The notes under the pieces were generated by a model. That model saw only the letters and a program-made list of their open reading frames with translations. It was not told the DNA's origin and did not search any database. The translations under genes were made by a program, and so were the position numbers. From the sequence record NZ_CP024444.1: a stretch of DNA of 64,000 nucleotides. One strand, given 5' to 3'. How positions within the stretch are numbered: position 1 is the stretch's first letter; the number at the start of each line of letters is the position of its first letter. Source of the DNA: a plasmid. Positions 28,165-47,476 of the stretch are shown one piece after another.

Positions 28165-29286
<1,122 letters not shown>

Positions 29287-29608: not shown

Positions 29609-29674
29609 ATATTCAACCTTCTCTCATTTAGATTTAGTCATCATACTATACTCTCTTATCGTTAAACTCATAAT

Positions 29675-30895: not shown

Positions 30896-31337
30896 GGTTA
30901 TTGTGTCTGTTGGTTAGTAAGCTCAGCCAATAGACACAAATTTAACAACCATTTGGAGATTTTATCCATGATTTAGCCATTGTTTTGCTTATTTCATTGC
31001 CATTCTTTGTTTTTTTTCGGTTTGGTGGTATGCCTCGAGCAAAGGGGCTGTTTCGTGCAAAGGTCTCAAAAATATATTTTTTAAAAAAAAGAAAATTTAT
31101 ATTAAATATTCTTATATTAACACTTCTGTATATCAAATTATCTTTTAGCAAAAACACGCTTAAAAAATAAATAAATTAAATCAATAATTTATGTTAAAGT
31201 AAAAAAAACCTAGTAATCAAACCGATTGTTAGAAAAGAATATTTCAATTGTTTAAATTAAAATCAATTAAAATAAAACCATGATACAAATTAATCTATCG
31301 AATTTACTTAATCATTTTCTTTTTAACTAGTATGCAT

Positions 31338-32909
31338 TCAACTTGAATAATTCTTCATAAACAAATTAAAATCCATGACTTGCTGCTGCTCTAACACTTC
31401 TTGCTCAAGAAGAGACTTTTGTGCAACTGATTCAAAAAATTGTTTACGCTCATCCGTCAAAACCTGTTTCGAAAAGTTATTCAAATGTTGCTGGCATTGA
31501 TGTAAAGCGAAGTCATTAAAACCTATATTATGTTGAAACATATATGTTAAGACCTTAGAGGATGGCGTTAAGAATGAATTCTCAATTTTAGCCTGTTGAG
31601 CATATATAGCTTCTTTATGTTTATTAATATCATTTGCATGATCGAGTAAATTAGCTAGAGGTCTAATATTAGCCAACAACTCTTGAGCCCAATCATACAT
31701 AGCAATTGAACTATCTCCATTTTGGAGTTCTAAATTTGGCTTTCGCCCCTTTTCAGCCACAAGGTGAAAGTTATTATTCGCCTGATTAAGGCTATCTTGA
31801 CTTAATGATGGGCTTTTATATAAAGCACAAAATAATAAAAATGCATCCAAAAAGTAAGCTTGCTCTAAATCAATTCCTAACGAAGAAAAAGGATTAATGT
31901 CCAAACAACGTATCTCGACATACTGTACCCCACGTGCATTTAATGCATGAAGCACACGCTCACCAGAATATGGAACTCGTTTTGGTCTAATATTTGAATA
32001 ATATTCATTTTCTATTTGCAAAATATTAGTATTAAGTTGCACCCATTCGTTATTTTTATGGGTACCAATATTCGTATACAAGGGGTAAGGTGTTTCTAAA
32101 GCCTCTTTTATACTATGAATGTATGAATTGAGACTATCAAAACAAGGAGAGATAGTAGATTGTGCACTACTTTGATAACCAATCTTACTCATTCGAAGAC
32201 TAGTCGCATAAGGCAAGTAGTAAGTGTCATTATCAAATTTTTTAAATTGATCTAAGTTTTTTTTTAAAAAATTTGAATTAACCGCTGGGGATGCTCCGAA
32301 TAGATAAATCAATAGCCAACTATAACGGTGAAAATTTCGTATCATATCCATATAAATTGATGACCGATCTTTATTTTCGAAAGTAGTTATATTATCTAGT
32401 TGGTATAAAAGCTGAATTAATTGCTCAGGTAATGAAAAATTATAGTGAATACCTGCTATACATTGCATGGCCCTACCATATCGAAGAGCTAATCCTTTTC
32501 GATAAACGTGTTTAAACTTACCAATATTTGAATTGCCATACTCAGCTATAGGAATCCTTTCTTCTTCTGGCAAAAGAGAAGGCATTGATGAACTCCAAAG
32601 GTATTCATTATTTAGTTTTGTATAAACAAAACGATGAATATCATTAAGTTCTGCAAGGACCTCTGAAGCACTCAAACAAGGTGGCGTAACAAATTCCATT
32701 AATGATTCGGAATAGTCTGTAGTAATAAACTCATTTGTCAAAGCTGATCCTAGTGTTTTTGGATGCGGTGTAAGCACCAAATTCCCATTCTTCGTTACAC
32801 GCAAACATTCACGTTCTATCCCTCGCAAACACATAGTCAATAAAGGTAAATTTTCACCTAGAATATTTAGACGATGAGTATAGTGTTCATCAAATATTAA
32901 TTTATCCAT
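31338..32909 (-). CDS. gshA: glutamate-cysteine ligase (gamma-glutamylcysteine synthetase)
   Basis: 523 aa. N-terminal GIERECLRV signature and overall length and colinearity with enterobacterial GshA. Confidence 0.85.
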   Translation of the reverse strand: MDKLIFDEHYTHRLNILGENLPLLTMCLRGIERECLRVTKNGNLVLTPHPKTLGSALTNEFITTDYSESLMEFVTPPCLSASEVLAELNDIHRFVYTKLNNEYLWSSSMPSLLPEEERIPIAEYGNSNIGKFKHVYRKGLALRYGRAMQCIAGIHYNFSLPEQLIQLLYQLDNITTFENKDRSSIYMDMIRNFHRYSWLLIYLFGASPAVNSNFLKKNLDQFKKFDNDTYYLPYATSLRMSKIGYQSSAQSTISPCFDSLNSYIHSIKEALETPYPLYTNIGTHKNNEWVQLNTNILQIENEYYSNIRPKRVPYSGERVLHALNARGVQYVEIRCLDINPFSSLGIDLEQAYFLDAFLLFCALYKSPSLSQDSLNQANNNFHLVAEKGRKPNLELQNGDSSIAMYDWAQELLANIRPLANLLDHANDINKHKEAIYAQQAKIENSFLTPSSKVLTYMFQHNIGFNDFALHQCQQHLNNFSKQVLTDERKQFFESVAQKSLLEQEVLEQQQVMDFNLFMKNYSS

Positions 32910-32931
32910 ATATCAAACCTTACATTCAAAG

Positions 32932-33702
32932 TTAATGTGCACCATGAACTACCCTATTAATTAAAGTTACTATAAGAATTCCTATAAAAAGCCAAAGAAT
33001 TTGGATAATGGTATCTTTAGTTGTCCAACGCTGTTGTAATTGAGGAATTAGATCTGATAAAGACACATAAATAAAACTACTACTAGCCAAAATCATAAGG
33101 AAAGGTTGCCATTGCTGTAATCCGGCCAGTAGAAAATATCCACTTAATCCACCTAAAGCTGTCATTGCACCAGCCATAGTAAGCTTTAGTACAGCAGCAC
33201 TACGATGATTTTTCTGCCTAAGAACTACCAAATCACCCATATGATGAGGTACTTCATGTACAAGAACCGAAGCAGCTGCAATCAGCCCAAGATGTATGTC
33301 AACAATGAAAATTGAAGCAATCAAAATACCATCACCAAAACAATGGACTCCATCACCCAATAATAGTGACCAACCATTAGTTGTATGTGGCTCATGTGAA
33401 TGATTATGCTCATGTCCGTGATGCCACAATTCAGCTTTATTAAGTAGAAAAAAGAAAACTAAACCAATTAGAAGTGCTAAAAAAAGTTGATGTGTATCTA
33501 TATTGCTTTCAAAAGCCTCTGGTAACAAATGTGTAAAACTTGTTGCTAATAACGCACCAGCTGCTAGACCTAAAAAGCCTTGTTGTACATAACTATCTTG
33601 ATTGTTAATAGCTGCCCCAGCTCTCGTTACCAATAAGTCTGCGATCAAAACGCTACCTATTCCTACGACCAGAGTGACTAGGGTAATAATGAAAAGTGAC
33701 AT
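32932..33702 (-). CDS. ZIP-family divalent metal transporter (ZupT-like)
   Basis: Eight TM segments, a His-rich loop HHGHEHNHSHEPH, and the ZIP signature HEVPHHMGDLVVL in TM4/5. Confidence 0.75.
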   Translation of the reverse strand: MSLFIITLVTLVVGIGSVLIADLLVTRAGAAINNQDSYVQQGFLGLAAGALLATSFTHLLPEAFESNIDTHQLFLALLIGLVFFFLLNKAELWHHGHEHNHSHEPHTTNGWSLLLGDGVHCFGDGILIASIFIVDIHLGLIAAASVLVHEVPHHMGDLVVLRQKNHRSAAVLKLTMAGAMTALGGLSGYFLLAGLQQWQPFLMILASSSFIYVSLSDLIPQLQQRWTTKDTIIQILWLFIGILIVTLINRVVHGAH

Positions 33703-33812
33703 AGATTTAATACATACCTAGTAGACAATCATTTTTAACTAATCGCATATACAAGCCGAAATTCGTTCGATACAACATCAAATTTGTAGATGTTGTATTA
33801 AGCAATCTAATA

Positions 33813-33835
33813 TACTATACCCACCTATAGTATAA
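33813..33835. promoter_or_regulatory. second FrmR/RcnR-type operator (ATACTATA-CCCACC-TATAGTAT) upstream of ZIP-gshA
   Basis: Same architecture and flanks (AATACTATACC...GTATAAAAGGG) as the frmR operator. About 110 bp upstream of the ZIP start. Confidence 0.5.
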
Positions 33836-34017
33836 AAGGGATTTTATAAAAAAGTTTAAGCCACTCAACAATTAATAGGAAATTATTTTAAATTCAATTA
33901 AATAGATACAAAAATCATGACATTCTTAATCAAATCTAGTCTATTGAGAAATTTTTATTTTTTACATTATACAAAAGAGCCTAAACAAAGGCCCTTTCAT
34001 CACTATTCTCTGAGCTC

Positions 34018-34125
34018 TTAGTATGCTAATTGAATTAAGAATCTAAAAATTCCTGCAATAACCGCTAATGTAACTACACCAATTACCCAAAGTAAGATAA
34101 ACCATCCTGTCTGTGAAAGTTTCAT
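34018..34125 (-). CDS. cydX: cytochrome bd small subunit (CydX-like), 35 aa
   Basis: Unannotated ORF MKLSQTGWFILLWVIGVVTLAVIAGIFRFLIQLAY. A single TM with a W-rich N-terminus like CydX. Lies 8 nt downstream of cydB, the canonical position. Confidence 0.5.
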   Translation of the reverse strand: MKLSQTGWFILLWVIGVVTLAVIAGIFRFLIQLAY

Positions 34126-34133
34126 ACAAACTC

Positions 34134-35138
34134 CTAATGATAACCAGCATCACCAACACGAACTTTACCTTTAAAAATCCAATATGAAAAAATGGTATAA
34201 GTCAGAATAATAGGAATGAGCAACAGTGCACCAATCAAAGCAAAAAGTTGACTATTCGCTGGGGCTGCAGCCTGCCAGATCGTTACTGAAGGTGGAATAA
34301 TATAAGGCCACAAACTAATTAAAAAACCTGTATAAGCAAGGAAGACTAAGCCTAACGTATAAATAAAAGGACTAAGTTCTTTCTTTTGTTTACATGCCCG
34401 TAAAGCCATTCCCGTAAAAATAAGTACTAATACAGGAATTGGACTAAAGTACATTAACTGAGGCTGACTAAACCAGCGTTCAGCAATTTGCGGTTGTGAA
34501 AGTGGTGTATAGATAGTAACTAATCCAAAAATAATAAATACTGAAATGATCAGTTTAGGCATCATTGAAAACATTTTTTCTTGAATTTCAGCATCAGTTT
34601 TATAAATTAACCATCCACATCCTAAAGTTGCATACAGAACGACTACACCAATACCAGTAAACACAGAGAAAGGTGTCAACCAGTCCAACTGCCCACCAGC
34701 ATAAACACCATTTAAGGTTTTAATACCCTGAATATATGCACCTAGAACTACACCTTGAAGAAAACCTGCAAATACTGAACCACTAATAAAAGCTTTATCC
34801 CACAGATGCTTAGTACGGTTTGCTTTAAATCGGAATTCAAAAGCAACTCCACGAAATATTAATGCGATCACCATCAAAATAATCGGCATATAAAGTGCAG
34901 AAAGAACTGTTGAATAAACTAGCGGAAAGGCAGCAAAAAGCCCCGCCCCACCAAGCACCATCCAAGTTTCATTACCATCCCAGACCGGAGCAACGGTATT
35001 CATTAGCACATCTCGCTCATTGGAACCTTTAATGAAAGGAAATAAAATTCCGATACCTAAGTCAAACCCATCTAGAATGACATAAATCAATACACCAATT
35101 CCAATAATGACAATCCAAATAAGAGATAAATCAATCAT
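34134..35138 (-). CDS. cydB: cytochrome bd ubiquinol oxidase subunit II
   Basis: N-terminus MIDLSLIWIVIIGIGVLIYVILDGFDLGIGIL is the CydB signature. Eight TM segments. The start overlaps cydA. Confidence 0.88.
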   Translation of the reverse strand: MIDLSLIWIVIIGIGVLIYVILDGFDLGIGILFPFIKGSNERDVLMNTVAPVWDGNETWMVLGGAGLFAAFPLVYSTVLSALYMPIILMVIALIFRGVAFEFRFKANRTKHLWDKAFISGSVFAGFLQGVVLGAYIQGIKTLNGVYAGGQLDWLTPFSVFTGIGVVVLYATLGCGWLIYKTDAEIQEKMFSMMPKLIISVFIIFGLVTIYTPLSQPQIAERWFSQPQLMYFSPIPVLVLIFTGMALRACKQKKELSPFIYTLGLVFLAYTGFLISLWPYIIPPSVTIWQAAAPANSQLFALIGALLLIPIILTYTIFSYWIFKGKVRVGDAGYH

Positions 35139-35607
35139 GGCGATTCTCCCGTATTGATTCTAGTTTATCTAAGCTTCCTTCAACCGCACTCATTGGTCGC
35201 ATCGGTGTTTGACCAACATCAGCATGTTCGCCTGAATGTACACTTAAGAATTGCGGGCCTTTATGCATTAGCTTTAACATGTAATAAATGCCAATACCGA
35301 AAACTACAAAATAAACCAGAACAAAAATAATTAGAGTTATTCCAACTTGCGATGCGGATACGGGTGACAACGCATCTTTAGTACGAAGTACATTGTAAAC
35401 AACCCAAGGTTGACGACCGACCTCTGTTGTAAACCAACCAGCTAGAAGAGCGATAAAACCTGACGGACCCATATATAATGCAAAACGTTGAAACCATTTA
35501 CTTTCATATAAACGGTCAGAACGACGCAGCCATAAGCCTAAGACGGCTAATAGCAGCATTAACATTCCCATACCAACCATGACACGGAAACTCCAAAAGA
35601 TGATCAA
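35131..35607 (-). pseudogene. cydA: cydA, C-terminal fragment only (truncated by IS3-family insertion)
   Basis: The 158 aa fragment matches the last TM helices of CydA (GRQPWVVYNVLRT). The open frame runs up to the IS3 terminal repeat at 35626, and no N-terminal part of about 350 aa is found elsewhere. Confidence 0.8.
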
Positions 35608-35720
35608 AGAATTCGGCCGATCTTCTGAACCGTCCTAGTTTTATCAGAGACAGGTTTACTTGAGTCAGGCAGCATAGCCTGACGGAATTAATGAACAATA
35701 GTACATATTTTCTGCATCTA

Positions 35721-36716
35721 CTACGAGCATAGCTCTCCGTCTTGCACTCGGGCGAAGCAGTGCTTCGCTAATCCTCGTTCAGGCGATACATATCCATTGG
35801 TAGAATGCAATCGTTCATAGTTGTACCAGTGTACCCAATCAAGGGTTGCTAGCGCAACATCATTTACGCCATCCCATTCCTGTTTCAAATAATCAATCAC
35901 CTCCGCTTTATATAGCCCATTCACGCTTTCAGCTAGGGCATTATCTGAGCGAGGAAATAGCGAAGCACTGCTTCGCCCGGGTGCAAGACGTAGGGCTATG
36001 CCCGAAGTGGAGTCACCAGTTGTACCAACCGATGCAGCAAGCCCCGATTGTTTAAGCCGTTCACCGTACTTAATCGATAGATACTGACTACCTTTATCAG
36101 AATGATGAATTACCCCGCTTGGTCTACCTCTAGCGTCTAAGGCTTGATTTAGGGCATCTAAGACCAGCTGAGTGTCCATATGATTCGATACTTTCCAACC
36201 CACAATAACTCGCTTAAATACGTCAATCACAAAGGCAGTATAGACCCAACCTGATTTAGTTTTAATGTAGGTAAAATCAGCGACCTGAGGAGCACTGCTC
36301 CGCAAGAGTCTTTTCTTGTTTGGGGCATCGGCAGTAAAGTTGCGTTTAACAAGGTCATTCGGCTTGTCTTGGTCGTCTCTCTGCTTCGTGGTGATTTTGC
36401 CTTTGCCTCGCCATACGCCTTGTATGCCAAGCTGTTTCATTAAGCGTTCAACGGTGCAACGAGCAAGCTTTGGCAAACCCTCTTGTTTGAGCTTGTGCCA
36501 AACTTTACGAATGCCATAGCGACAGCCACTGGCTTGCCAAATCTGTTTGATTTGTGCCATGAGGTGTTTGTCGCTTTGTTTGCGTCGACTTTGCTTTTCT
36601 GGGTTGTCTTGTTCATCTTTGATGCGATAGTAGGTGGATGGGGCAATTGGCAGGATTTTGCAAATCGGCTCGACCCCATATTTTTCTTTTTCATCATCAA
36701 TGAATTTGACCATCAC
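35721..36716 (-). CDS. IS3-family transposase OrfB (integrase core), carrying an atypical internal insert
   Basis: DDE region HSDKGSQYLS...DNALAESVNG. About 20 extra aa (SGIALRLAPGRSSASLFPR) sit where the family has GNCYDN. This coincides with a 33 bp inverted repeat at 35739-35771 and 35958-35990. Confidence 0.75.
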   Translation of the reverse strand: MMVKFIDDEKEKYGVEPICKILPIAPSTYYRIKDEQDNPEKQSRRKQSDKHLMAQIKQIWQASGCRYGIRKVWHKLKQEGLPKLARCTVERLMKQLGIQGVWRGKGKITTKQRDDQDKPNDLVKRNFTADAPNKKRLLRSSAPQVADFTYIKTKSGWVYTAFVIDVFKRVIVGWKVSNHMDTQLVLDALNQALDARGRPSGVIHHSDKGSQYLSIKYGERLKQSGLAASVGTTGDSTSGIALRLAPGRSSASLFPRSDNALAESVNGLYKAEVIDYLKQEWDGVNDVALATLDWVHWYNYERLHSTNGYVSPERGLAKHCFARVQDGELCS

Positions 36717-37030
36717 TTGGGTTTGCGGTCGAGCTCCGCCTGGGCTTCAATACCGGCTGCCTTGCGAATGATTTCGTTCGCTTGTTTGAGTTCTCTGATT
36801 TCTCGCTCAAGCTCAGCGATACGAGCCGCTTGGCTTTCAGTGCTTATAGTCACAGGATTTTGCTTAGCTAGGTGCTTTTGATGCCATGAGCGTAGGGTTT
36901 CAGGGGTACACCCGAATTTGGGGGCGATGGCTTGGATGGCCGCCCACAGTGAGGGATAATCTTTTTGTGATTCAATCAGTAATTCGACGGCTCTACTCTT
37001 AACTTCTGTTGGGTATTGTTTGCTTTTCAT
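36713..37030 (-). CDS. IS3-family transposase OrfA (HTH)
   Basis: 105 aa. HTH followed by a leucine-zipper-like ELEREIRELKQANEI segment. Confidence 0.8.
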   Translation of the reverse strand: MKSKQYPTEVKSRAVELLIESQKDYPSLWAAIQAIAPKFGCTPETLRSWHQKHLAKQNPVTISTESQAARIAELEREIRELKQANEIIRKAAGIEAQAELDRKPK

Positions 37031-37437
37031 AAGGGTATTGTCTCAGAGTTTTAGGTCTCCGACAATCCCGGGACGGTTCACTTTTGGTCGTCAAGTTTTA
37101 AAAGACTTAGTTTGTAAAAGCTCATTATTAGGAGATTTAGCTCTAAAGAAGAAAGTACATGAACACTTATTTAAGTTTTTAGAAAATACTATTAATTCTC
37201 TTTATAATCCAGATGCATATAAAGATAGTAGAATCGATATGGTATTTAAGGAAAAAGGCTTTACAATACGTAACAATATTTTAAGTTCAGATGTAAGACA
37301 AGATTTTAATAAAAAAAATTTTTCTGACCCAATTCACAAAATTTTTAAAGATATTGGAATTTTTTAAAGTTATAGATGCAACTCTAACCTTATAACTTTA
37401 ATTGTATAAGGTTAGTAGATAGCGCATTATATATTTA

Positions 37438-38421
37438 ACCCCACTCTCAACACTTTTAGAGGGGGTTGAAACAAAAAAGGCATGAACTTAAACTTTAATC
37501 AATGACCAAAAAGATTAGAGGATAAGCCATGCCCATTGATGAATTTATCATTAAAATCTATCTAATGGTAGATGACTACTACAAAAAGATTGTAACAAAC
37601 CGGCTAAGACAAGGCGGATATGCACCAAAGCTAACCGACAGTGAAATTATCACCATGGAGATAGTGGGTGAGTTTTTACAGATGGACACCGATTCACAAA
37701 TCCATCAGTATTTTAAACAGCATTGGCAAACATGGTTTCCACAAATAGGCTCATATCCCAACTTTGCCAAGCAGTGCGTCAATTTGTTACAGGTAAAAAC
37801 TTTGATACAACAGCATATCGTTAAACAGCATGGGCAAGACAACATTCATTTTATTGATGGCTTTCCCATTCCGGTGTGTCAATATGCCAGAGCCTATCGG
37901 CATAAAACCTTCGAATATGAAGGTAGCTATAGTTACTGTGCCTCAAAGCAACAAAAATATTTTGGCTTTGAAGGACATTTACTCATTAATCTATCGGGCA
38001 TGATAACCAATTTTACCTTTGCCTCTGCTAAGATAGATGAAAGGCTTGTTGCACCTGATATGCTTGATAATATCAAAGGCTTGTTAGGTGCAGATATGGG
38101 CTATATTAGCCCTGATTTATCTGAGTATTGCTTTAAGCGATGTGTTGATTTGCAAACACCGCTTAGAAAAAATATGCCCGATAAACGACCAATCAGTGTA
38201 CTTAATCGTCTTAAAAATTCTCGTCGCAATATTGAGACGGTGATTGGTCAGTTATCACAGCGGTTTAATATGCAAAAGGTGAGAGCGAGAGATTTATGGC
38301 ATTTATCCCACAGATTTATGCGTAAAATCTTGGCTCATAACGTTTGCTTTGTGATCAATAAACAGTTAGGTAATCCCCCACTTCAGTTTGAGTTGCTTAT
38401 TTCAAGTTGAGAGTGGGGTAT
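37438..38421 (+). mobile_element. IS982-family insertion sequence, copy 2 (same orientation as copy 1, about 96% identical)
   Basis: Same terminal repeats CCCCACTCTCAAC ... GTTGAGAGTGGGGT. The transposase differs from copy 1 at about 10 aa. Confidence 0.8.
37529..38410 (+). CDS. IS982-family transposase
   Basis: 293 aa, a paralog of the 20297-21178 protein. Confidence 0.85.
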   Translation: MPIDEFIIKIYLMVDDYYKKIVTNRLRQGGYAPKLTDSEIITMEIVGEFLQMDTDSQIHQYFKQHWQTWFPQIGSYPNFAKQCVNLLQVKTLIQQHIVKQHGQDNIHFIDGFPIPVCQYARAYRHKTFEYEGSYSYCASKQQKYFGFEGHLLINLSGMITNFTFASAKIDERLVAPDMLDNIKGLLGADMGYISPDLSEYCFKRCVDLQTPLRKNMPDKRPISVLNRLKNSRRNIETVIGQLSQRFNMQKVRARDLWHLSHRFMRKILAHNVCFVINKQLGNPPLQFELLISS

Positions 38422-38615
38422 TAAATAGAAAAAATAAAGAAACTCTAAAATATTGGTAAAATTAAAAACCTAAACCTAGTCTTTCATCTTTATTACCAAA
38501 ACAACCCACATCTAATTATTATCCAAACCCCATATATCACGTCATGCAATCGCTAAAATTTGGTTTGGTCTAATGGCTAATGTGATTAATTTATAGAGGC
38601 TTTTTTAAATTTATT

Positions 38616-39255
38616 TACGCTCAAATCGGTTTTTATACGTTATTTGCCATTTTCTTACGCTCAAATCGGTTTTTATACGTTATTTGCCATTTTCTTACGC
38701 TCAAATCGGTTTTTATACGTTATTTGCCATTTTCTTACGCTCAAACCCATTTTTATACGTTATTTGCCGTTTTCTTACGCTCAAACCCATTTTTATACGT
38801 TATTTGCCGTTTTCTTACGCTCAAACCCATTTTTATACGTTATTTACCATTTTCTTACGCTCAAACCCATTTTTATACGTTATTTACCATTTTCTTACGC
38901 TCAAACCCATTTTTATACGTTATTTGCCATTTTCTTACGCTCAAACCCATTTTTATACGTTATTTACCATTTTCTTACGCTCAAACCCATTTTTATACGT
39001 TATTTGCCATTTTCTTACGCTCAAACCCATTTTTATACGTTATTTACCATTTTCTTACGCTCAAACCCATTTTTATACGTTATTTGCCATTTTCTTACGC
39101 TCAAACCCATTTTTATACGTTATTTGCCGTTTTCTTACGCTCAAACCCATTTTTATACGTTATTTGCCATTTTCTTACGCTCAAATCGGTTTTTATACGT
39201 TATTTACCGTTTTCTTACGCTCAAACCCATTTTTATACGTTATTTGCCGTTTTCT
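38616..39255. repeat. 16 x 40 bp perfect-period tandem direct repeat array (iteron- or centromere-like)
   Basis: Unit TACGCTCAAACCCATTTTTATACGTTATTTGCCATTTTCT. The variants are CAAATCGGT / CAAACCCAT and GCCAT / ACCAT / GCCGT / ACCGT. There are no unique spacers. Confidence 0.95.
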
Positions 39256-39730
39256 TACGTTCTTGAAGGACTTAATCATATCTCTATATTTTCATCCAAG
39301 TTTTCATGTATCTTGGCGTTGAATTCGCTTAAAGGAAGTTTTCTGTTTCTAGCTTATGAAGTTCTCGCCTTTCTTACCAAAACATACTGAATTTTTTTAT
39401 TAATAGCTAATGTCAGATGCGCTCTAAGCTCGATGGTTGGGCAATCTTCACTTGAAATGTCATTAATGCTTTTTAAAATTTCAGTTTTTTAAAAATAGGT
39501 TCTGACAATAACTGCTTCATCCCAAAAATTTAATAAGAATTTCTTGAGTAACGGGAGATAGACAATTTTTTATCACGGTTTGCGCCGCTTCTGCCCTATA
39601 TGTAATGCCCTATATTTAACTTTTGAAATAGCGATAGCTTGATTTAGGTTTTGTCCAGCCAAAAACCGCAGGACTTTTATTCTGTCGCCTTATGGCGACA
39701 ACGATTCGGGTTTTTGGGCTGTTGGGCTAA

Positions 39731-40042
39731 TTAAGGTTTATTGCTTTCCTTATTTTTCACTTTTTCGCGATTGGCTTTTATCCTATCAACCGATTTTTTA
39801 GTTTCATTATCAAGTTGTGGTGCGGTGTTACCAACGGTTTGTAAATCAACTTTTAGTCGAATATTTTGGATATGTCGCTCTCGATTTTGGTTTTGTACAT
39901 CGGCTTGATGAAAAAATGCTTGGATAAAAAGCAAGGTCAAGCTAAAGACAAAAGCAAAAAGAAAGATACCGTTACGGACTTCTTTTAGTGTGCCTTTGGC
40001 TTTGTCGCCAATTTCTAACTTAAAGTTATTTGATAGTTTCAT
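39731..40042 (-). CDS. hypothetical small membrane protein (first unit carrying the conserved 5' module)
   Basis: 103 aa with one TM segment. A conserved promoter and UTR module lies immediately upstream (40046-40150). Confidence 0.5.
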   Translation of the reverse strand: MKLSNNFKLEIGDKAKGTLKEVRNGIFLFAFVFSLTLLFIQAFFHQADVQNQNRERHIQNIRLKVDLQTVGNTAPQLDNETKKSVDRIKANREKVKNKESNKP

Positions 40043-40440
40043 AATGTTTTACCTTTTTGGAAGTAGAAATGTGATTGAGCCTATCTCGAAATCACCTGCT
40101 TATAATAACGGTTTTAGCGTGTATTGTCAAGCGGTTTAACCGTTTTTTTCATGTAAAGAAAAGTAACCAAACATAGGCTGTGCCTAGCTTTTAGCCTATT
40201 TTGACTACCAAAAAATGCGTTACAATTTTCCCCATATTTAAGGTTTTTCTAAACCCATTTCACCCTGTATGTAATGGCTTTTCAAACCACTGTTCACCCT
40301 ATAATTAAAGGCTTTTCTTGAATTAGCGATAGCTTGATTTAGATTTATCCGCACCCAAAAAAATGCCCAAGCAATCGCAAGGGCAAAGTTGACATTCGGG
40401 GAATGGGTAGGCAATCACGCCTACCGTTTTCATTTGGGGG

Positions 40441-40758
40441 TTACTGGTAGTAATTGTAGCAATCGCCAAGCAGTTTCATAAAGTCGTCACGACGGTTTTC
40501 CATTTCGGTTTCCACATCGTCAAATTTACCATCTTCGTTACATTCTTCATCCACGTAAAGGCTCACATCATCATCTAACATCAGGTAGCGTAAACCCTCA
40601 ATGACAATGAAGTTACCTATGGCACGTACTGGGTAGCCATAGTGTACCCATGATGCAGTGAATTGTTCGGTGTCGCTGTCAAAACTGATATTTGGGCTAA
40701 CCTTAAGAATATCGTTAACAACTTCTTGGGCTTTGGTGTTATTGGTAGTGGTAGTCAT
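40441..40758 (-). CDS. hypothetical acidic protein
   Basis: 105 aa, D/E-rich. Conserved 5' module at 40762-40905. Confidence 0.6.
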   Translation of the reverse strand: MTTTTNNTKAQEVVNDILKVSPNISFDSDTEQFTASWVHYGYPVRAIGNFIVIEGLRYLMLDDDVSLYVDEECNEDGKFDDVETEMENRRDDFMKLLGDCYNYYQ

Positions 40759-40761
40759 AAT

Positions 40762-40905
40762 TTCGTTCCTTGTGGTTGGTATGGTTTCGAGCCTTTCTCG
40801 TTTCCATGTGCTTATTATGACGGTTTAACCGTTTATAGTCAAGCGGTTTAACCGTGTTTTACCCATTTTCCGACGAACGGTAAAACCGTTTTCGACCACA
40901 TTTCA
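40762..40905 (-). promoter_or_regulatory. conserved promoter/5'UTR/RBS module (representative copy)
   Basis: In gene orientation: ACGGTAAAACCGTT ... ACGGTTAAACCGCTTGACT-N17-TAATAAGC ... CATGGAAACGAGAAAGGCTC ... CCAACCACAAGGAACGAAATT-ATG. Confidence 0.7.
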
Positions 40906-40931
40906 GACATTTATCCCTCTATTTAAAAAAC

Positions 40932-41212
40932 CATGACCACGGCTTTTGGTGGTAATGGTTGCAATCTTTTCAGGCAATCATTCCCACGGCTTTTGGTGGG
41001 TATGAGGCCCTCTTGTCTTAGCTCGGATAGTCAAGGCTGGCAAGTATGAAATGCAGGCAATCGCCTACGGATCATGCGGCTTGATGACTTATCGCGTTAG
41101 CAGGAAGTCAGTAAGACCATGAAGCCGTCAGCGAGTGACAAGAGTAATACTGCCAAGACTGACGTTGCTGGCGTCTTTTTGCCAGCAATCCGCCAAAGTC
41201 TTTATCAGTTAA
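40932..41212. repeat. 281 bp non-coding repeat, copy A (second copy at 43687-43967, about 98% identical)
   Basis: Both copies read directly. It contains an internal direct repeat CCACGGCTTTTGGTGG x2 and a terminator-like GCTGGCGTCTTTTTGCCAGC. Confidence 0.8.
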
Positions 41213-41233
41213 AAAACTAACCTTTGCGCAAAT

Positions 41234-41710
41234 TTATGAATTATCTAAAGTAGCTTTATTGGCTAATAACCGAATTAAATCTTTTAACTCATAATCTTTG
41301 TGAGCAATAGCACCAACCTTAATTAACCCATTCTCAATATGGTATAAATCATAAACAATAGCGTCTGATACCAAAACGGGTTGTTCATCAGGTACATTAA
41401 TATCAATTAATCGGATAACAGGTTCGCTATCATCATCCACGCCAGCCGAACCAAAACGTTCTGCACTCACAATAAAAGAAACATCGAAACCATCTAGCCA
41501 AAGTTCAAATAAAAGACTTGCCGGGATATCACGACTACCTTTTTCATAATTGGCATACGTGGATTGGGCAATCGCTAATCGCTCATAAACAGATTTAGCC
41601 GTATAACCTAACCTTAACCGTTCTTGCTTTAATCGCTCACCGATAAACTTGAACGGATATTTTTTAAATTCAGCATCAATCTTTGCCATAAGTTGTTCTT
41701 GGGGGTTCAT
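41234..41710 (-). CDS. XRE-family HTH transcriptional regulator with C-terminal domain
   Basis: N-terminal HTH (LKQERLRLGYTAKSVYERLAIAQSTYANYEKGSRDIP). 158 aa. Its own promoter is distinct from the conserved module. Confidence 0.7.
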   Translation of the reverse strand: MNPQEQLMAKIDAEFKKYPFKFIGERLKQERLRLGYTAKSVYERLAIAQSTYANYEKGSRDIPASLLFELWLDGFDVSFIVSAERFGSAGVDDDSEPVIRLIDINVPDEQPVLVSDAIVYDLYHIENGLIKVGAIAHKDYELKDLIRLLANKATLDNS

Positions 41711-41955
41711 GAGTAAATCCTATGTACCAGTATAAGTATAGTCATATAAAATGCATTAAATATAGCCATTTGACCACATGTTGTCTATCACAACGATAGC
41801 ATCCATAAGTAACATTTGTATTAGCGATAGCTTGATATAGTCCATCACGCCAAATTTTTGGAAAAAAACCCAACCAATTTTTTGGCTGGGCGTTGGGTTT
41901 GACTGGGTGACTGGACGACCAACCTTACCGCATTGGGTAAGGTGGTTTTGCGTGA

Positions 41956-42318
41956 TTATAAAGCAAAGTCTTCGTCTTTGTTTTCGTCTTCAGTGTCTTC
42001 CGAGCGATAGGCTAGACGTAACTGCTGGAAGTAGTTAACCGTATCATAGCCCATACTATCGCGTGACTCACCAAGTACGATGACTTCCATGTAAGCGTCG
42101 TGAGCGTCTTTTGGCAGCTCTTCTTTGATGGTATCAGCTAACCAAAACAGCATAGCGTTATGGTAGCAACCTTCACATACCAAACCTAGACAGTGTGAGC
42201 CATACATGCCACGTCCTGAATACGTGCGAATACGGATATCACCAAAGTCTGACTCAAAGCGTTCTTTGCGTTTTACTAGGGCATCAAATAGTTGGTTGGT
42301 TAATTCTTCAGTAATCAT
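41956..42318 (-). CDS. hypothetical protein (Cys/His-containing, acidic C-terminus)
   Basis: 120 aa. Conserved 5' module at 42322-42470. Confidence 0.6.
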   Translation of the reverse strand: MITEELTNQLFDALVKRKERFESDFGDIRIRTYSGRGMYGSHCLGLVCEGCYHNAMLFWLADTIKEELPKDAHDAYMEVIVLGESRDSMGYDTVNYFQQLRLAYRSEDTEDENKDEDFAL

Positions 42319-42611
42319 AATCTCGTTCCTTTTGGTTGGGTGATGGTAGCGAGCCTATCTCGTTTCCATGTGCTTATAATAACGCTTTAACCGTGTATAA
42401 TCAAGCGGTTTTAGCGTTTATTTAAGGGTTTTCCGACGAACGGTAAAACCGTTTATTTCGCAGTTTGCCGGGCGAACACCCCTATAATTGATGGCTTTTC
42501 ATCTTTGTATTAGCGATAACTTGATATAGTGCATCACGCCCACCCAACCGATGGCGATGCATGGACGAAAAAACCTAGTCACTTCTGACTAGGCTTTATG
42601 CATCCGGCTTG

Positions 42612-43508
42612 TTAAGCGGCTATGGGTTGTTTCTTCTGCGACCAATTTTCTAAGATGTAATTAACTGCTTTTTGGGCGTCCGCTGAAGCTTTGAAGATGG
42701 CGCGTTTGTCAGCTTTTAGCACTTGTAACCATGATTTTAAATAGCTTGCATGGTTGGTTAGTGTGGTTTCTAAGCATCCCATTTCAGCGCATAAAAAGCT
42801 TGCGCCTAGTTCTGCTACAAGTTCCTCCCGAGCGTATGCGGTATCACCGAATTTTTTACCGTATTGGCGGTTTAATCGTTTTTCTGCACCCGTGCTGTGG
42901 ACTAGCTCATGTCCAAGCGTCGCAAACTGTTCATCTAGGTTTACAAAGTCGCTTGCATTCGGCATGCATATCGTATCGATGTAGGGTTTATAACAAGCTG
43001 AATTGTAACCGTATTCAATTTTTACGTCGGTATTTGCAAAGATGGTTTTTGCGGTTTCATTCTCTGCAATGGGTGTTAACGTTTCGTCTTCATCAGGGGT
43101 GATTGCGCTAATATCGCCATCCATTTGGCTAATGTTAAACACACAAAAACTATTTAAAAATGGGATGGTTTCGATGTCACCCTCTTTGTTTTCTTTCTCA
43201 ATGACATTGTAATATGCTAGGCGTACCGATTTTGCACCTTTTTTAACCTGTAAGTTTTTGGCTTGGGCTTGCTTGTAGGTCATCCATACATTGTATTTAT
43301 AATCGCTGTTAATCATGGCTTTGGCTAAGATTAGACGATTAACGCCTTTGTAGAGTTCACCTGTTGAGCCATTGACGCCACCGAAAATGTTGGTAACCGG
43401 ACGGGTTTTCCAGCCTTTTTTCCATTGTGGTAAATCAGTTTCAAGAAGTTCAATCATTGCATTGGTTACTTCTTGGTACATATCGATTTTAGTAGCTGAT
43501 TTTGTCAT
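42612..43508 (-). CDS. ardC: ArdC-like antirestriction protein (N-terminal ssDNA-binding domain + zincin metalloprotease HExxH)
   Basis: N-terminus TKIDMYQEVTNAMIELLE and the HELVHSTG motif. Start moved to the MTKSATK Met at 43508, just after the conserved RBS. The ORF track began 29 codons upstream, inside the module. Confidence 0.8.
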   Translation of the reverse strand: MTKSATKIDMYQEVTNAMIELLETDLPQWKKGWKTRPVTNIFGGVNGSTGELYKGVNRLILAKAMINSDYKYNVWMTYKQAQAKNLQVKKGAKSVRLAYYNVIEKENKEGDIETIPFLNSFCVFNISQMDGDISAITPDEDETLTPIAENETAKTIFANTDVKIEYGYNSACYKPYIDTICMPNASDFVNLDEQFATLGHELVHSTGAEKRLNRQYGKKFGDTAYAREELVAELGASFLCAEMGCLETTLTNHASYLKSWLQVLKADKRAIFKASADAQKAVNYILENWSQKKQPIAA

Positions 43509-43665
43509 GATGTCGTTTCCTTTTGGTTGGGTGTTGGAATTGAGCCTATCTCGTTTCCATGTGTTTATAATAACGGTTTTAGCGTGTATAGTCAAGCGGT
43601 TTAACCGTGTATTTTATGCATTTTCCGACGAACGGTAAAACCGTGTATCTTCAGATGCCGGACAC
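43509..43665 (-). promoter_or_regulatory. conserved promoter/5'UTR/RBS module (ardC copy)
   Basis: TTGACT-N17-TATTATAAAC promoter, CATGGAAACGAGATAGGCTC UTR box and CCAACCAAAAGGAAACG RBS region. Confidence 0.7.
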
Positions 43666-43686
43666 ACAACCCAATAATTAACAACC

Positions 43687-43967
43687 ATGACCACGGCTTT
43701 TGGTGGTGATGGTTGCAAGCTTTTCAGGCAATCATTCCCACGGCTTTTGGTGGGTATGAGGCCCTCTTGTCTTAGCTCGGATAGTCAAGGCTGGCAAGTA
43801 TGAAACGCAGGCAATCGCCTACGGATCATGCGGCTTGATGACTTATCGCGTTAGCAGGAAGTCAGCAAGACCATGAAGCCGTCAGCGAGTGACAAGAGTA
43901 ATACTGCCAAGACTGACGTTGCTGGCGTCTTTTTGCCAGCAATCCGCCAAAGTCTTTATCAGTTTAA
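43687..43967. repeat. 281 bp non-coding repeat, copy B
   Basis: Near-identical to 40932-41212. In both copies it sits immediately distal to a conserved promoter module. Confidence 0.8.
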
Positions 43968-44656
43968 TCACCACGGCTTACCAACTAACCAATAACACCA
44001 ACTAACCTAACATCTTGCCCATCCATAAAATCCACATCAGCCTAAAACACCACAATAGACACCACCATGGCAAAACCTTATGCTAGAACCATAATAGCCT
44101 CTACTGCATTAAGTATATATGCACTAACAAAGGTGACTTACCGGGTAACCACTTATGGCTAGTACATCACGCCAATATCAACCTATCATCGATACCAAAC
44201 TCACCAAGCTTGGGCTAAAAAGTCAGGTAAACCAGTTCATTAAACTAACTGCCATAATCATGGTAATGCCAACAGTGATAGCAAATTATCTCGTCACACT
44301 GCTAACTATTCATAAAAAAGCGAATCGATTAAGACTGCAGGCGCAATTGCCGATACCGACGTTAAAGCAGGCTTATCTTCTGCTTATCAAAGCAAACGAC
44401 GTGTAAACCTGACAAGGTCTTAACCGTACTATAAAAGCACCTAAATAGCCTACCTGACTAAAGCCGTTGTATGGGGGTATCTATAAGTAACGGCTACGAG
44501 CAATAGATTATCCAATCAATGCCTAAGCCAGTTAACTTCCACTTTGTTTTAGCGATAACTTGATGTAGGCTGCCAAACCACACGCCAGTCTTGCCATTAA
44601 CCGCTGCCCATAAAAAACCCTAGTGCGATGACTAGGGCTATTGGGTGGTAAGTGGG

Positions 44657-45043
44657 TTAACCTGTAAAGTTAAAGTAGTGAAAGCTTGCGCGTGTACCGT
44701 TACCTGTTAAGCCATCAGATAAGATACCATACAAACGGTATAGCACATCATGCACTGCATCCGAGCCACAGCTGCGTATCACTAGGTTACCGTTTCTATT
44801 CATACGCTCACCAAGCACCTTATGAAGAATTGGCGTGATGTTCATAAATTTATTGTCTTTGACCAAACCAAAGCGGATTTGGTGGGTGTAACCGCTTGCT
44901 GATACATGGGCTTCATTAGCAACCACATCGACGGTGTGGCGGTTATTCCACATGTATTCAAGCACTTCGCCCATGTCGTTATCGACAGATGGGTTATCTT
45001 GCATCAGGGTAATGATATTTGGGTTTTGAATAGATGTTGTCAT
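44657..45043 (-). CDS. hypothetical protein
   Basis: 128 aa. Conserved module at 45047-45185. Terminator-like CCCTAGTCATCGCACTAGGG + T7 downstream. Confidence 0.6.
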   Translation of the reverse strand: MTTSIQNPNIITLMQDNPSVDNDMGEVLEYMWNNRHTVDVVANEAHVSASGYTHQIRFGLVKDNKFMNITPILHKVLGERMNRNGNLVIRSCGSDAVHDVLYRLYGILSDGLTGNGTRASFHYFNFTG

Positions 45044-45333
45044 ACGTGTTTATCCTTTTGGTTGGGGTTGGTTGCGAGCCTATCTCGTTTCCATGTGCTA
45101 ATAATAACGCTTTTAGCGTGTTTAATCAAGCGGTTTAACCGTGTTTATTGGTATTTTCAGATGAACGGTAACCGAAAAATGCCGACCCTACCCACCCATA
45201 AGTACGACCCATTTGCACTAGCCATCACTTGAAAATAGCACCAATCATGCCTGCCAGCTGTGCCCATCAACCACGCCAGTCAACAATAAAAAAACCTGTC
45301 GTCTGACAGGTCTTAGTAAGTGTGGGGGTGGCA

Positions 45334-46266
45334 TTAGGCGCGTGAGAGTAAAGCTGGTGTGTTTTGCTCAAATGGCGTCACGATGTAGCTAACGTTGCCA
45401 TTAAAATCAGCACTACCAATGCATGATAACGGCTTACCAATGAAATTGTCTTTAATCGGTCTGCCTTTGGCGTCACTGGTAACCGCCTGTACCAATAAGA
45501 TGGTATCAAAGTTTTCGCTATTCATGCCAAGCTTGACCACTTGGTAGAACAGTTTGGCATCGGGTTTGCTAGTTGAGCTTGCCTGTAAAAAATCACCGAC
45601 CTTTAATTGCTCGTTGTATTGGTTTTCTACCATATCCAAGCTTAGGGTGAGCTGCTTGTAAACTTCAATCAAGGCTTCAAACAAGTCAGCCGGGTTATCA
45701 AAATGGCAAGCACTGCTTTGGTTAAATACGGCAATACCGATAGGGCGTTTACCGTCATAAGCCACAATCATCATGATACTAGCGTTCAAGTAGCTTAAAA
45801 TTACATCGGTCCAGGTGGCGTTGAATTTTTCTTTGACCAGTGCGCGACGTCCCTGTACCAATTGATTGCTTTCAAAGTTGTTGCGTGACTCGTTATCGTC
45901 GACGACAAGTTTACCCTTTGGGCTTAATTGGTTGTAGGCAACTTGGGCTTGCTTGATGGTAAATTGGTCAATGTATTTGACATACTGACTAATTTCTTCA
46001 ATGGTGGTTATCATGTCAGGATAAAACAAGGTATTTAGGTTTTTAAGCGGCTGCCCGGTGGGTACGTGCATCTTAGACTGGTTGTCGTGCGTTCTAATCA
46101 CAGTAAAAGGTGGGGTCAGTAGTGTGCCTTTGCTGTGGATTTTGCCGTCATCATTGACCAGCGCATTGTGCCCAGCTTTGCTTTCAGCCATCCAGCTGCC
46201 CAGCATCAGCTTATGATTTTTACTGTATTTGAAGTTATCAATAATAGCGATTAGGGTGTTTTTCAT
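45334..46266 (-). CDS. unknown-function protein, member 1 of a six-paralog family (about 310-350 aa)
   Basis: Shares the family blocks GTLLTPPFTV, SIMMIVAYDGKRPIGIAVFN and the C-terminal IGKPLSCIG block with the 47605, 48760, 52447, 54211 and 60245 genes. Confidence 0.7.
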   Translation of the reverse strand: MKNTLIAIIDNFKYSKNHKLMLGSWMAESKAGHNALVNDDGKIHSKGTLLTPPFTVIRTHDNQSKMHVPTGQPLKNLNTLFYPDMITTIEEISQYVKYIDQFTIKQAQVAYNQLSPKGKLVVDDNESRNNFESNQLVQGRRALVKEKFNATWTDVILSYLNASIMMIVAYDGKRPIGIAVFNQSSACHFDNPADLFEALIEVYKQLTLSLDMVENQYNEQLKVGDFLQASSTSKPDAKLFYQVVKLGMNSENFDTILLVQAVTSDAKGRPIKDNFIGKPLSCIGSADFNGNVSYIVTPFEQNTPALLSRA

Positions 46267-46557
46267 GATGGTTATCCTTTTGGTTGGGGTTATGGTGTCG
46301 AGCCTATCTCGTTTCCATGTACTTATAATAACGCTTTAACCGTGTATAGTCAAGCGGTTTAACCGTTTATATACAAGCTATTCGACGGATGGCTGGCGCA
46401 GGCGCGATGTGTGTTAACCCACACTCCCCCATACATAAGCTCTTATAGCACTAGCTATCGCTTGAATTAGATCAGCTCGCCTGTCCAATACCCACCGATG
46501 CGATGGGCATAAAAAAACTTGCTAGGGTTAACTAGCAAGTCTGTTGTTTGGGTGGGC

Positions 46558-47316
46558 TTATGCTAAGGGACGTTTTTTGCTCTTGGATTTATCATTTTTA
46601 CGGCATTCATTTAATGCCACAAAACTTTTAGCAAGGGTTAGGATGCCTTCTTTATATACTTTCCAAAAATCTAAGGCATCGAATTCCATTCGGGCTATCT
46701 CGCTACTGCTAAAATTTTCCCATTCTTCGATGGTGTGGCATTTACAGCCGATACGGATTTTGTCATTCATCAAGCTGATAAACCACTGATAATCATATAA
46801 ACACAATACCGGATAAGGTAGCTTGGCGAAGGTGATATTTGCACCACGAAAAATGGCTTGTTCAATGTCGCATTGGGTGAAGTCGGTTTGTTTCAATGAT
46901 GCGTTGGTAAAGTTGGTATTAATGGTATTGGCATTGGTAAAAATTGAGCAATCAAGGTTACAGCCATCAAGATGGGTTAATTCTAGGTTGCTATCCGTAA
47001 AGTTACAATTGCTAAGGTTGGCTTGATAAAAATAAGCTTGGCGTAAATCTGCGTTGGTAAAATTTACCCGACGTCCTTTTACATTGGTCATGTTGGTTTG
47101 GCATAAGTTAGCATTTTCAAAATTGGCATTGCTGATATCGCAGTTAATAAGGCTTGCACCGAATAAATTTGCACCGCTTAGGTTTGCACCTGTTAAATCA
47201 AACCCTTTTAAGTCCATGTCTTTTAAGTCGATGTTGCGTAAGTCGGCTTTAACTAGGGTGTCTAAATCAAGTGTGATAGTCGATTTGTTGTATACATGCT
47301 TGATGGTGATAGCCAT
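46558..47316 (-). CDS. pentapeptide-repeat protein with conserved C-terminal Cys module (RIGCKCHTIEEWENF)
   Basis: Tandem A(N/D)LxG pentapeptides throughout. The C-terminal module is shared with three paralogs. Confidence 0.85.
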   Translation of the reverse strand: MAITIKHVYNKSTITLDLDTLVKADLRNIDLKDMDLKGFDLTGANLSGANLFGASLINCDISNANFENANLCQTNMTNVKGRRVNFTNADLRQAYFYQANLSNCNFTDSNLELTHLDGCNLDCSIFTNANTINTNFTNASLKQTDFTQCDIEQAIFRGANITFAKLPYPVLCLYDYQWFISLMNDKIRIGCKCHTIEEWENFSSSEIARMEFDALDFWKVYKEGILTLAKSFVALNECRKNDKSKSKKRPLA

Positions 47317-47319
47317 GAG

Positions 47320-47476
47320 AGTATTCCTTTTGGTTGGGTGATGGTAGCGAGCCTATCTCGTTTCCATGTGCTTATAATAACGCTTTAACCGTGTATAATC
47401 AAGCGGTTTAACCGTGTTTTTACCCATTTTCCGATAAACGGTAAAAGCGTTTTTCGGGTCGGCTGACACGTTTCCC
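47320..47476 (-). promoter_or_regulatory. conserved promoter/5'UTR/RBS module
   Basis: The -35 TTGATT (plus 47397-47402) and -10 TATTAT (plus 47374-47379) are separated by a 17 nt spacer. Confidence 0.7.

Follow-up and report, generated by a model that had tools for sequence, protein, structure and literature searches.

Described counterparts of the array

The parC loci of plasmids R1 and pSK41 are roughly 160 bp long and contain 8–10 sites, the sopC locus of the F plasmid comprises 12 tandem repeats of 43 bp, and the StbA protein of R388 is associated with the stbDR direct repeats, located next to the origin of transfer (oriT). In type II partition systems, parC consists of tandem direct repeats that are located upstream of the operon and wrapped around a ParR superhelix, and type Ia centromeres always contain inverted repeats (PMC5016525). 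Partition proteins have also been linked to conjugation, as ParM and ParR stimulate the conjugation of plasmid R1 (PMC4949242), while the Par proteins of NAH7 act at parS and bind oriT (PMC12421886). Here, we analyzed a stretch of 64,000 nucleotides from a plasmid (record NZ_CP024444.1), termed the window, which carries an array of 16 direct repeats of 40 bp together with an operon for a type IVB secretion system (T4BSS) of the Dot/Icm type that also encodes a ParM-like ATPase. As the best supported of the readings considered, we tentatively propose, with somewhat less than even confidence, that this array is a cis-acting protein-binding site, namely, a parC-like centromere, of the ParM-type module in the conjugation operon, and that it may possibly also serve transfer.

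Comparison with the parC–parM–parR loci of R1 and pSK41 revealed several shared features. The window array is composed of direct tandem repeats (32 half-units of 20 bp) that lack inverted repeats, a ParM-type ATPase is encoded in cis, and the repeats are located upstream of the ParM operon in near-identical relatives of the window, as in described parC loci (PMC5016525). The ~20-bp spacing of the sites corresponds to that of the contiguous parC of pSK41, superhelical wrapping of the DNA would be expected in both cases, the gene directly following parM encodes a protein with a disordered tail, and distant relatives of the window operon encode a true ParR/StbB homolog. In contrast to R1 and pSK41, the window array is much longer (640 bp and 32 sites), the genes dotD, dotC, dotB, and icmT are found between the repeats and parM, with the module residing in a Dot/Icm-type operon, no ParR homolog is detectable, its place being taken by an unrelated 450-amino acid (aa) protein (hereafter, X), and the plasmid also carries a parAB system.

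The array further resembles sopC and the 46/47-bp arrays of Acinetobacter megaplasmids in being a long, spacer-free series of ~40-bp units of varying copy number on a large low-copy plasmid; however, their units hold an inverted repeat and adjoin parA/parB or sopAB, neither of which applies to the window unit. With StbA/stbDR of R388 and the Par system of NAH7 (PMC12421886), it shares direct repeats at the border of oriT and the leading region, where a DNA-binding protein links positioning with conjugation, but homologs of StbA, KorA, and ParB were not found here, and the window array is far larger and tied to an actin-like ATPase and a T4BSS. Similarly, the srpMRC module of SXT/R391 integrative and conjugative elements (ICEs) is a type II (ParM-type) partition module on a conjugative element (PMC4489591), although it forms a separate cassette instead of being inserted between icmT and dotM in an operon of the type IVB kind.

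Anatomy and variation of the array

Tandem Repeats Finder resolved positions 38615–39259 as 16.1 copies with a period of 40, 96% matches, 0% indels, and a score of 1136. In agreement, the raw sequence contains 16 units arranged head-to-tail and followed by a partial TTACG, and a search with the 40-mer consensus (up to three mismatches) recovered 15 in-phase copies compared with 0.00 expected from shuffles, the 16th copy carrying four mismatches. These results bear out the initial annotation, made from the sequence alone, regarding the 16 repeats, the IS982 copy on their left (an IS982-family transposase open reading frame [ORF] at 37529–38410 lies directly left), and the two variable sub-sites, which correspond to columns 12, 14, 15, 32, and 35, the only variable columns of the window array. 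The units are contiguous and spacers are absent, which rules out a CRISPR array, as had also been noted.

On the minus strand, which is the dotD-sense strand, the unit reads CGTAAGAAAA-yGGyAAATAA-CGTATAAAAA followed by a variable 10-mer. It is composed of two diverged 20-bp halves, TTTTCTTACG and TTTTTATACG, each continued by 10 bp, and its self-match is 24/40 at an offset of 20 compared with 8–16 at other offsets. Each unit contains two wAACGTAwr boxes (AACGTA core) located 20 bp apart, giving 32 boxes in the array, and no palindrome or inverted repeat of at least 6 bp was found within the unit. The A-rich minus strand can be further divided into four 10-bp CGnnnnAAAA-like segments, the 10-bp A-tract periodicity being weaker than the 20-bp one. 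The AA/TT phasing of the array at 10.0 bp reached 0.18, the top value in the 64-kb window (0.032 ± 0.017 elsewhere, with a maximum of 0.119). Several other assignments of the array were rejected. Neither strand folds better as single-stranded DNA (ssDNA) than its shuffles (z = −0.2 to −0.4), which rules out an ssDNA promoter, an ssi, or a hairpin element; a non-coding RNA was rejected with no Rfam match at E ≤ 1; the 180–248-aa ORFs that traverse the array in three frames are stop-free artefacts of the repeat and not a coding repeat; and sigma-70-like sites are not in excess over shuffles in or around the array, contrary to a promoter array.

The window is nearly identical to the Moraxella osloensis plasmid pMOXF1 (CP040258.1, 248 kb), with 95–99.8% identity except at 20207–38419. 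The 30-bp core of the unit is restricted to the array, and to one strand, in both the window and pMOXF1. Copy number, which the initial annotation had suggested comparing between related isolates, is 16 in the window and 11 in pMOXF1, although the flanks are 97–99.6% identical, and the variable 10-mers of the two plasmids (CTCAAACCCA/CTCAAATCGG in the window versus TTTTGACCGA/CCCAAATCGG in pMOXF1) differ at 6 of the 10 positions. Across isolates and contexts, the copy number ranges from 2.5 to 16, and the unit order varies as well. Pooling 48 units (25 distinct) from three backgrounds and all contexts revealed that positions 16–27, 29–30, 33–34, and 36–40 are invariant or nearly so, while positions 6–15 are hypervariable (at least 10 variants) apart from the fixed A11 and C13, and positions 28, 31, 32, and 35 also vary. 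The boxes and the T/A-tracts hardly vary at all. Unit extraction required TTACG at positions 1–5 and wTACG at positions 21–25 and thus imposed part of the box invariance, with positions 26–40 being unconstrained.

The combination of fast turnover and a fixed core points to constraint on the boxes and argues against a neutral minisatellite. A functionless array generated by slippage or recombination would account for the varying copy number and unit order, as well as for the near-perfect units, which look as if derived from a recent expansion. Nevertheless, we consider it very unlikely, as only one 10-bp block varies and the other 30 bp are fixed over 25 distinct units, the position upstream of dotD is kept in seven replicons, and distant relatives carry analogous repeats. 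Moreover, scattered copies of the unit, which the initial annotation had named as the mark of a generic minisatellite, were never observed, and arrays were found at two specific kinds of site only. A search of PLSDB with the array returned pMOXF1 as the sole match, no close Moraxella relative was found among species-representative genomes, and viral contigs yielded single chance matches only.

The dotD–parM operon and its relatives

In pMOXF1, dotD and the start of the 11-unit array upstream of it are separated by 487 bp that contain no other feature. Five more contigs that carry the operon (M. osloensis-type; one from M. osloensis GCA_030015105.1) end inside the array, 430–610 bp upstream of dotD, with an identical junction sequence but different dotD-proximal units. 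The position of the array upstream of the dotD–parM operon is therefore conserved in seven replicons, and such arrays interrupt short-read assemblies of these megaplasmids at a predictable point. An 18.2-kb IS982 composite, missing from pMOXF1 and the five other contigs, separates the array from the operon in the window. The two IS982 copies and the 8-bp duplication ATTAAATA indicate that this segment moved into the spacer as one transposing unit, inserting 213 bp from dotD; the window is thus the derived state, in which the array, belonging with the dotD–parM operon, was split off by the composite. The cargo of the composite includes a cytochrome bd-like subunit and an IS3-family element.

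The operon encodes a type IVB secretion system of the type I mating pair formation (MPF-I) class (Table 1), with DotA/TraY encoded further to its left. The ParM-type ATPase reported in the initial annotation proved genuine, as its ORF matched the Pfam families MreB-like_C, ParM_N, and ALP_N above their cut-offs; its match to the NCBIfam ParM model (E = 1e-14) was below the equivalog cut-off. The gene is located inside the type IVB conjugation operon and not in a stand-alone parMRC cassette. Two candidates for missing parts of such a cassette were rejected, since the 65-bp gap directly before parM contains no repeats that could represent a hidden parC, and the 90-aa ORF preceding parM, considered as ParR, corresponds to the IcmT/TraK-like membrane protein.

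In the Moraxella plasmids, parM is followed by the gene for X, at the site that parR normally occupies. A word-based homology search with X found near-identical proteins only, while an exhaustive phmmer search identified three remote homologs with 26–31% identity. In the X family, a long linker, acidic or low in complexity, joins a helical core to a short C-terminal motif, a tripartite layout that resembles ParR in plan. X is the best candidate for an array-binding adaptor, and X, or another operon-encoded protein, would bind the boxes. In the mechanism that we envisage, the 32 AACGTA boxes, spaced 20 bp apart, would face one side of a curved, A-tract-phased duplex and nucleate cooperative binding of the adaptor, which would wrap the DNA into a superhelical nucleoprotein complex. 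The ParM-like ATPase would then engage this complex and position or segregate the low-copy megaplasmid. In addition, the ParM-bound complex may bring transfer-origin-proximal DNA to the secretion machine, and a complex assembled upstream of dotD may also regulate the operon, as ParR–parC does. ParM would act on the array complex, with partition and/or transfer as the putative outcome.

In support of this notion, the order DotD–DotC–DotB–IcmT–ParM-like–(variable protein)–DotM recurs in the Moraxella bovis plasmid NZ_CP087831.1, in Acinetobacter pXBB1-9-type megaplasmids, and in loci L009–L014, which derive from beta- and gammaproteobacterial genomes and metagenome-assembled genomes (MAGs), whereas seven Pseudomonas loci encode a T4BSS without ParM. 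The M. bovis plasmid carries ~12 degenerate 20-bp direct repeats before dotD, and L011 and L013 carry 6–10 CATGGTG/GTGGCG boxes upstream of dotD at a 20–25-bp spacing. In a crude test whose margins over shuffles were small, the excess of repeated 10-mers upstream of dotD exceeded all shuffles in 4/5 ParM-positive non-Acinetobacter loci but in 0/7 ParM-negative loci. In related operons, other direct repeats with a spacing of 20–22 bp occupy the position of the array.

The distant relatives L009 and L011–L014 also encode a 69–83-aa protein directly after parM, with an N-terminal ribbon-helix-helix (RHH), whose profile matches the 'StbB protein' of PDB entry 2JD3 (E = 0.004), which we take to be the ParR of pB171. 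Downstream of this ParR/StbB homolog, a second RHH-like protein is encoded, which possesses a disordered linker as well as a conserved peptide at its C-terminus. Since parM is not preceded by a non-coding gap in these loci, the repeats before dotD are left as the sole candidate for parC there. The conserved peptide of the second RHH-like protein reads DWSRFRGLAGS, and parM and the genes for these two proteins all lie between icmT and dotM (e.g. L011 12468–14325). An integrase is encoded next door in L011, which suggests an ICE.

Further evidence comes from loci that carry an X-family gene. In L103, which has the same T4BSS operon, all 11 matches to GATATAACGTATTT are located within 945 bp upstream of dotD, ten of them on the sense strand, with zero matches in the other 13.6 kb and 2.2 expected over the whole locus. 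The 9-mer core of the L103 repeat, ATAACGTAT, also forms the conserved box of the window unit, on the same strand (GCAAATAACGTATAAAAA), and by a rough estimate, the chance of two repeat consensuses sharing a same-orientation 9-mer is ~0.003. In L106 (GCA_904846095.1 CAJGZW010000047.1), the X-family gene is located outside a T4BSS, with DUF3584/DUF7281 neighbors, and is preceded (6711–7374) by a 162-bp × 4.1 array holding 12 CATATATAGyG boxes at a 20-bp spacing. Convincing repeats were not found in the region upstream of the remaining X homolog locus, L104. Four lineages, namely, the M. osloensis megaplasmid, L103, M. bovis, and L106, thus combine X-family genes with direct repeats at a 20-bp spacing, and the repeats change with the protein, which is the behavior of a centromere-binding protein and its site.

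In the Acinetobacter pXBB1-9-type megaplasmids (L003 18935–19698; L015–L027 from ~16359), a tandem array with units of 46/47 bp lies directly before parA, adjoining the same T4BSS operon. Its unit contains the palindrome TTATCAGACTGATAA, 4.5 to 21.5 copies are present depending on the species, and the array probably represents a sopC-like centromere.

The initial annotation had considered iterons of a replication origin (oriV) alongside a parC-type array tied to the ParM gene, and it had pointed to rep and parR genes as the partners to look for. No rep gene was found in the window, and no AT-rich or DnaA-box region adjoins the array. In pMOXF1, Rep_3 genes with their own 21-bp iterons are located at 5.8–6.8 kb and 71.5 kb, and parAB, with palindromic 46-bp parS-like repeats just upstream, is located at 0.1–2 kb; each of these loci is separated from the array by more than 45 kb (46 kb in the case of parAB). 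In small plasmids that carry the same 40-bp unit, Rep_3 has separate 22-bp iterons, which differ between L058 and L076/L077 while the array is constant, and the repeat therefore does not co-vary with Rep. Direct repeats on a plasmid whose host harbors iteron-using Rep_3 plasmids would agree with oriV iterons, or with an iteron-type copy-control or incompatibility locus, yet given the above, we regard this reading as largely refuted and highly improbable. A type Ia centromere of the sopC/parS kind was also ruled out, as the unit contains no inverted repeat and parAB is distant and equipped with its own palindromic repeats. The parC-type reading of the initial annotation, in contrast, fared better in part: it gains from the location of the array upstream of the ParM operon in pMOXF1 and the five contigs, from the direct repeats in related operons, and from the ParR/StbB proteins of distant relatives, while the expected parR did not materialize in the window and ParM turned out to be part of a T4BSS operon.

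Several observations weigh against a parC-like centromere. No ParR homolog is detectable in the window, and X, found in its place, matched ParR-like profiles only at non-significant values (E = 0.6–0.9), has no PDB or Pfam match, and yielded an unusable single-sequence AlphaFold model (predicted local distance difference test [pLDDT] of 34). The presence of four type IV secretion genes (dotD, dotC, dotB, and icmT) between the array and parM is unlike any described parMRC locus, and in the window, where the array is 18 kb from the operon, a promoter-linked role is disrupted. In addition, parAB of pMOXF1 has its own parS-like repeats, and a second centromere is, therefore, not obviously needed; the limits of the repeated-10-mer test count here as well. 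Finally, small Rep_3/MOBQ plasmids, described below, carry the unit without ParM and X, and the adjoining protein, ORF267, could be the real binder.

The extreme A-tract phasing also raises an architectural or regulatory alternative, by which the array would be curved DNA upstream of the dotD promoter (or of ORF267 on small plasmids), acting as an upstream activator or as a site where a host nucleoid protein nucleates and silences the transfer genes. A host factor would explain the occurrence of one sequence on two unrelated replicons, in both contexts, the array precedes the next gene and shares its orientation, and repeats upstream of the NAH7 conjugation genes activate transcription (PMC12421886). 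Nonetheless, conservation of the AACGTA box exceeds the needs of curvature, promoter-like sites in and around the array are no commoner than in shuffles, and an insertion of 18 kb that parts the array from the operon is tolerated in the window plasmid. The boxes of the relatives differ, which fits co-evolving plasmid binders better than a conserved host protein, and we therefore find this alternative unlikely.

If the array is indeed a parC-like site of the ParM module, a clade of Dot/Icm-type conjugative plasmids and ICE-like elements, spanning Moraxella, Acinetobacter, and beta- and gammaproteobacterial genomes and MAGs, would have an actin-like partition module wired into its secretion operon. 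The cis site of this module, at the border of the operon and the leading region, would connect vertical segregation with horizontal transfer in a concrete and testable way; to date, such a connection has been demonstrated mainly for R1, R388, and NAH7. The size, perfect register, and strong curvature of the array would also make it a good substrate for structural and biophysical studies of segrosome assembly.

Table 1. Features of the window, with coordinates in the 64,000-nucleotide stretch
Feature	Position	Strand	Remarks
T4BSS operon	9537..19993	−	Type IVB (MPF-I) secretion system, eight members
TopA	9537-12206	−	Operon member
DotM	12383-14011	−	Operon member
Protein X, 450 aa	14028-15380	−	Encoded where parR normally sits
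ParM-like actin-family ATPase	15397-16476	−	Position conserved in this T4BSS clade
IcmT/TraK-like	16542-16814	−	Operon member
DotB ATPase	16843-18162	−	Operon member
DotC/TraI	18159-19457	−	Operon member
DotD	19457-19993	−	Operon member
Proximal part of ancestral spacer	19994..20206	−	Directly upstream of dotD; presumed T4BSS operon promoter region
IS982 composite, 18.2 kb	20207..38419	.	Two IS982-family copies (93% identical), 8-bp target duplication ATTAAATA
Distal part of ancestral array–dotD spacer	38420..38614	−	Holds near-palindromic 13-mer TAATGTGATTAAT (38578-38590)
Tandem array	38615..39259	−	16 × 40 bp = 32 half-units of 20 bp
Non-coding spacer between array and first leading-block gene	39260..39730	+	Weak candidate nick region
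Leading-region-type block	39731..64000	−	Helix-turn-helix (HTH) protein, ArdC (42612-43595), five pentapeptide-repeat proteins, SSB (59423-59980)

The leading-region side and small mobilizable plasmids

All genes to the right of the array are on the minus strand and are, therefore, transcribed toward it. In pMOXF1, this unidirectional block spans ~43 kb. The initial annotation had described the region as a promoter-unified island, or cassette array; the shared 23-bp element that precedes its minus-strand genes (TATAATCAAGCGGTTTAACCGTG) was indeed found, but with SSB, ArdC, and pentapeptide-repeat proteins, the region is better called a leading-region-type block. Such content, with genes in one orientation relative to oriT, is characteristic of plasmid leading regions (PMC11541004). 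The MPF-I plasmid pCTX-M3 displays the order leading region, oriT, nikAB, and traH(DotD) (PMC8125031), and by analogy with this order, the array sits where oriT would be expected. A transfer role for the array is plausible and would be compatible with a centromere-like mechanism.

A weak candidate nick region is located in the spacer that separates the array from the block; it is made up of an imperfect inverted repeat, CTTGAAGGA (39262–39270) and TCATCCAAG (39292–39300), followed after 8 nt by TATCTTG (39309–39315). This YATCYTG motif is found 50 bp right of the array, and nicking of its strand would make the leading block the first part to enter a recipient; ~0.5 such motifs are expected by chance in the searched sequence. 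Folding of the candidate region as ssDNA was not significant (z = +0.6), and the motif is missing in the M. bovis relative. A TraG/TrwB-type coupling protein is encoded in pMOXF1 (95293–98238), while no relaxase was recognized near the array or elsewhere in that plasmid; the 1069-aa ORF just upstream of the coupling protein gene is a candidate relaxase. PLSDB/MOB-suite types pMOXF1 as non-mobilizable, despite its DotA, DotB, DotC, DotD, DotM, IcmT, coupling protein, and 43-kb leading-type block.

These surroundings bear on the alternative that the array is an oriT accessory site, bound by a DNA-bending relaxosome-accessory or coupling-protein-associated factor that would aid nicking or recruit the plasmid to the T4BSS, with small plasmids carrying the site to be recognized by the helper machinery. 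This alternative overlaps with the centromere reading. It draws on the location of the array at the junction of the leading-type block and the T4BSS operon, on the gene order of pCTX-M3 (PMC8125031) and the shared orientation of leading-region genes (PMC11541004), on the nick-like motif with its inverted repeat on the expected strand, on the coupling protein, on the binding of partition-type proteins to oriT regions (PMC12421886), and on the small plasmids described next, in which the array is ~100 bp from an oriT-like sequence. Given the chance expectation for the motif and its loss in M. bovis, the weak hairpin, the lack of a recognized relaxase, and the fact that described oriT regions do not contain 16–32 tandem sites, we consider it doubtful, albeit with an appreciable chance of being correct.

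A metagenome scan identified the window unit, at 2.5–7.5 copies, in six contigs with unrelated flanks, including a lone 20-bp half-unit in L067. These small M. osloensis plasmids share a layout consisting of mobA (MOBQ), an oriT-like inverted repeat, the array, ORF267, an AT-rich stretch with the 22-bp iterons, and Rep_3, in which the array is ~100 bp from the MOBQ-type oriT-like inverted repeat and mobA. The order common to both contexts is, therefore, the transfer-origin side, the array, whose A-rich strand is the sense strand, and a downstream gene. ORF267 is an orphan of 265–267 aa (L058 4816–5619; family P0002, 322 member sequences), and its family is present in M. osloensis (WP_144918845.1). 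The array always abuts it, with an identical junction and 14 bp from the ORF267 start in every gene examined, and ORF267, like the array, is unchanged between the plasmids with different iterons. A word-based homology search with ORF267 found near-identical proteins only, no homolog was detected in the window, pMOXF1, or any PLSDB plasmid, and the protein matched no Pfam family. Both the megaplasmid and the small plasmids (L058 ~4619–4631) carry the near-palindromic 13-mer TAATGTGATTAAT at a distance of 25–40 bp from the array, but on opposite sides of it; a shared word of this length was obtained in 2/500 shuffles.

The constancy of the junction, despite the different Rep_3 iterons, and the occurrence of the ORF267 family in M. 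osloensis suggest an alternative in which the array is the binding site of ORF267, and the megaplasmid carries a captured site or a decoy, which either titrates ORF267 or employs it in trans. We find this quite unlikely. The megaplasmid keeps 11–16 units at the same place in seven replicons even though no ORF267 homolog accompanies it, ORF267 displays no recognizable DNA-binding domain and its single-sequence structure model is unusable (pLDDT 38), and the ATAACGTAT box upstream of dotD in L103 indicates that the site is native to the operon. The latter observation favors, though not with confidence, capture of the array by a small plasmid, possibly to exploit the megaplasmid machinery. Extending the centromere reading in this direction, the ParM module may deliver plasmid DNA to the secretion machine, or position it there, by means of a large centromere-like array next to the transfer origin, and small plasmids may have copied a short array beside their own oriT, thereby hijacking the helper for segregation or transfer (cis-site mimicry as a way of hitch-hiking); this scenario appears fairly unlikely to us. 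If true, small MOBQ plasmids may exploit helpers via shared cis sites, beyond oriT/relaxase compatibility.

Within the leading-type block, the palindromic-core element GCGGTTTAACCGTG, which is part of TATAATCAAGCGGTTTAACCGTG, occurs in 30 copies compared with 0.33 expected. It is confined to the block (40131–63661), and its copies are often paired, 23 bp apart, just upstream of each gene. The element looks like a shared promoter/operator of one regulator, perhaps the HTH protein encoded at 41234–41710. The pentapeptide-repeat proteins (46558–47316, 50229–50975, 51314–52141, and 57719–58477, with one more in pMOXF1; range 46558–58477), encoded in the block alongside ArdC and SSB, may be DNA-mimic anti-restriction or anti-defense proteins. 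At the other end of the window, a TnpB gene (Cas12f-like, OrfB_IS605) is located at 7764–8882, with ~80–82% identical copies elsewhere in pMOXF1.

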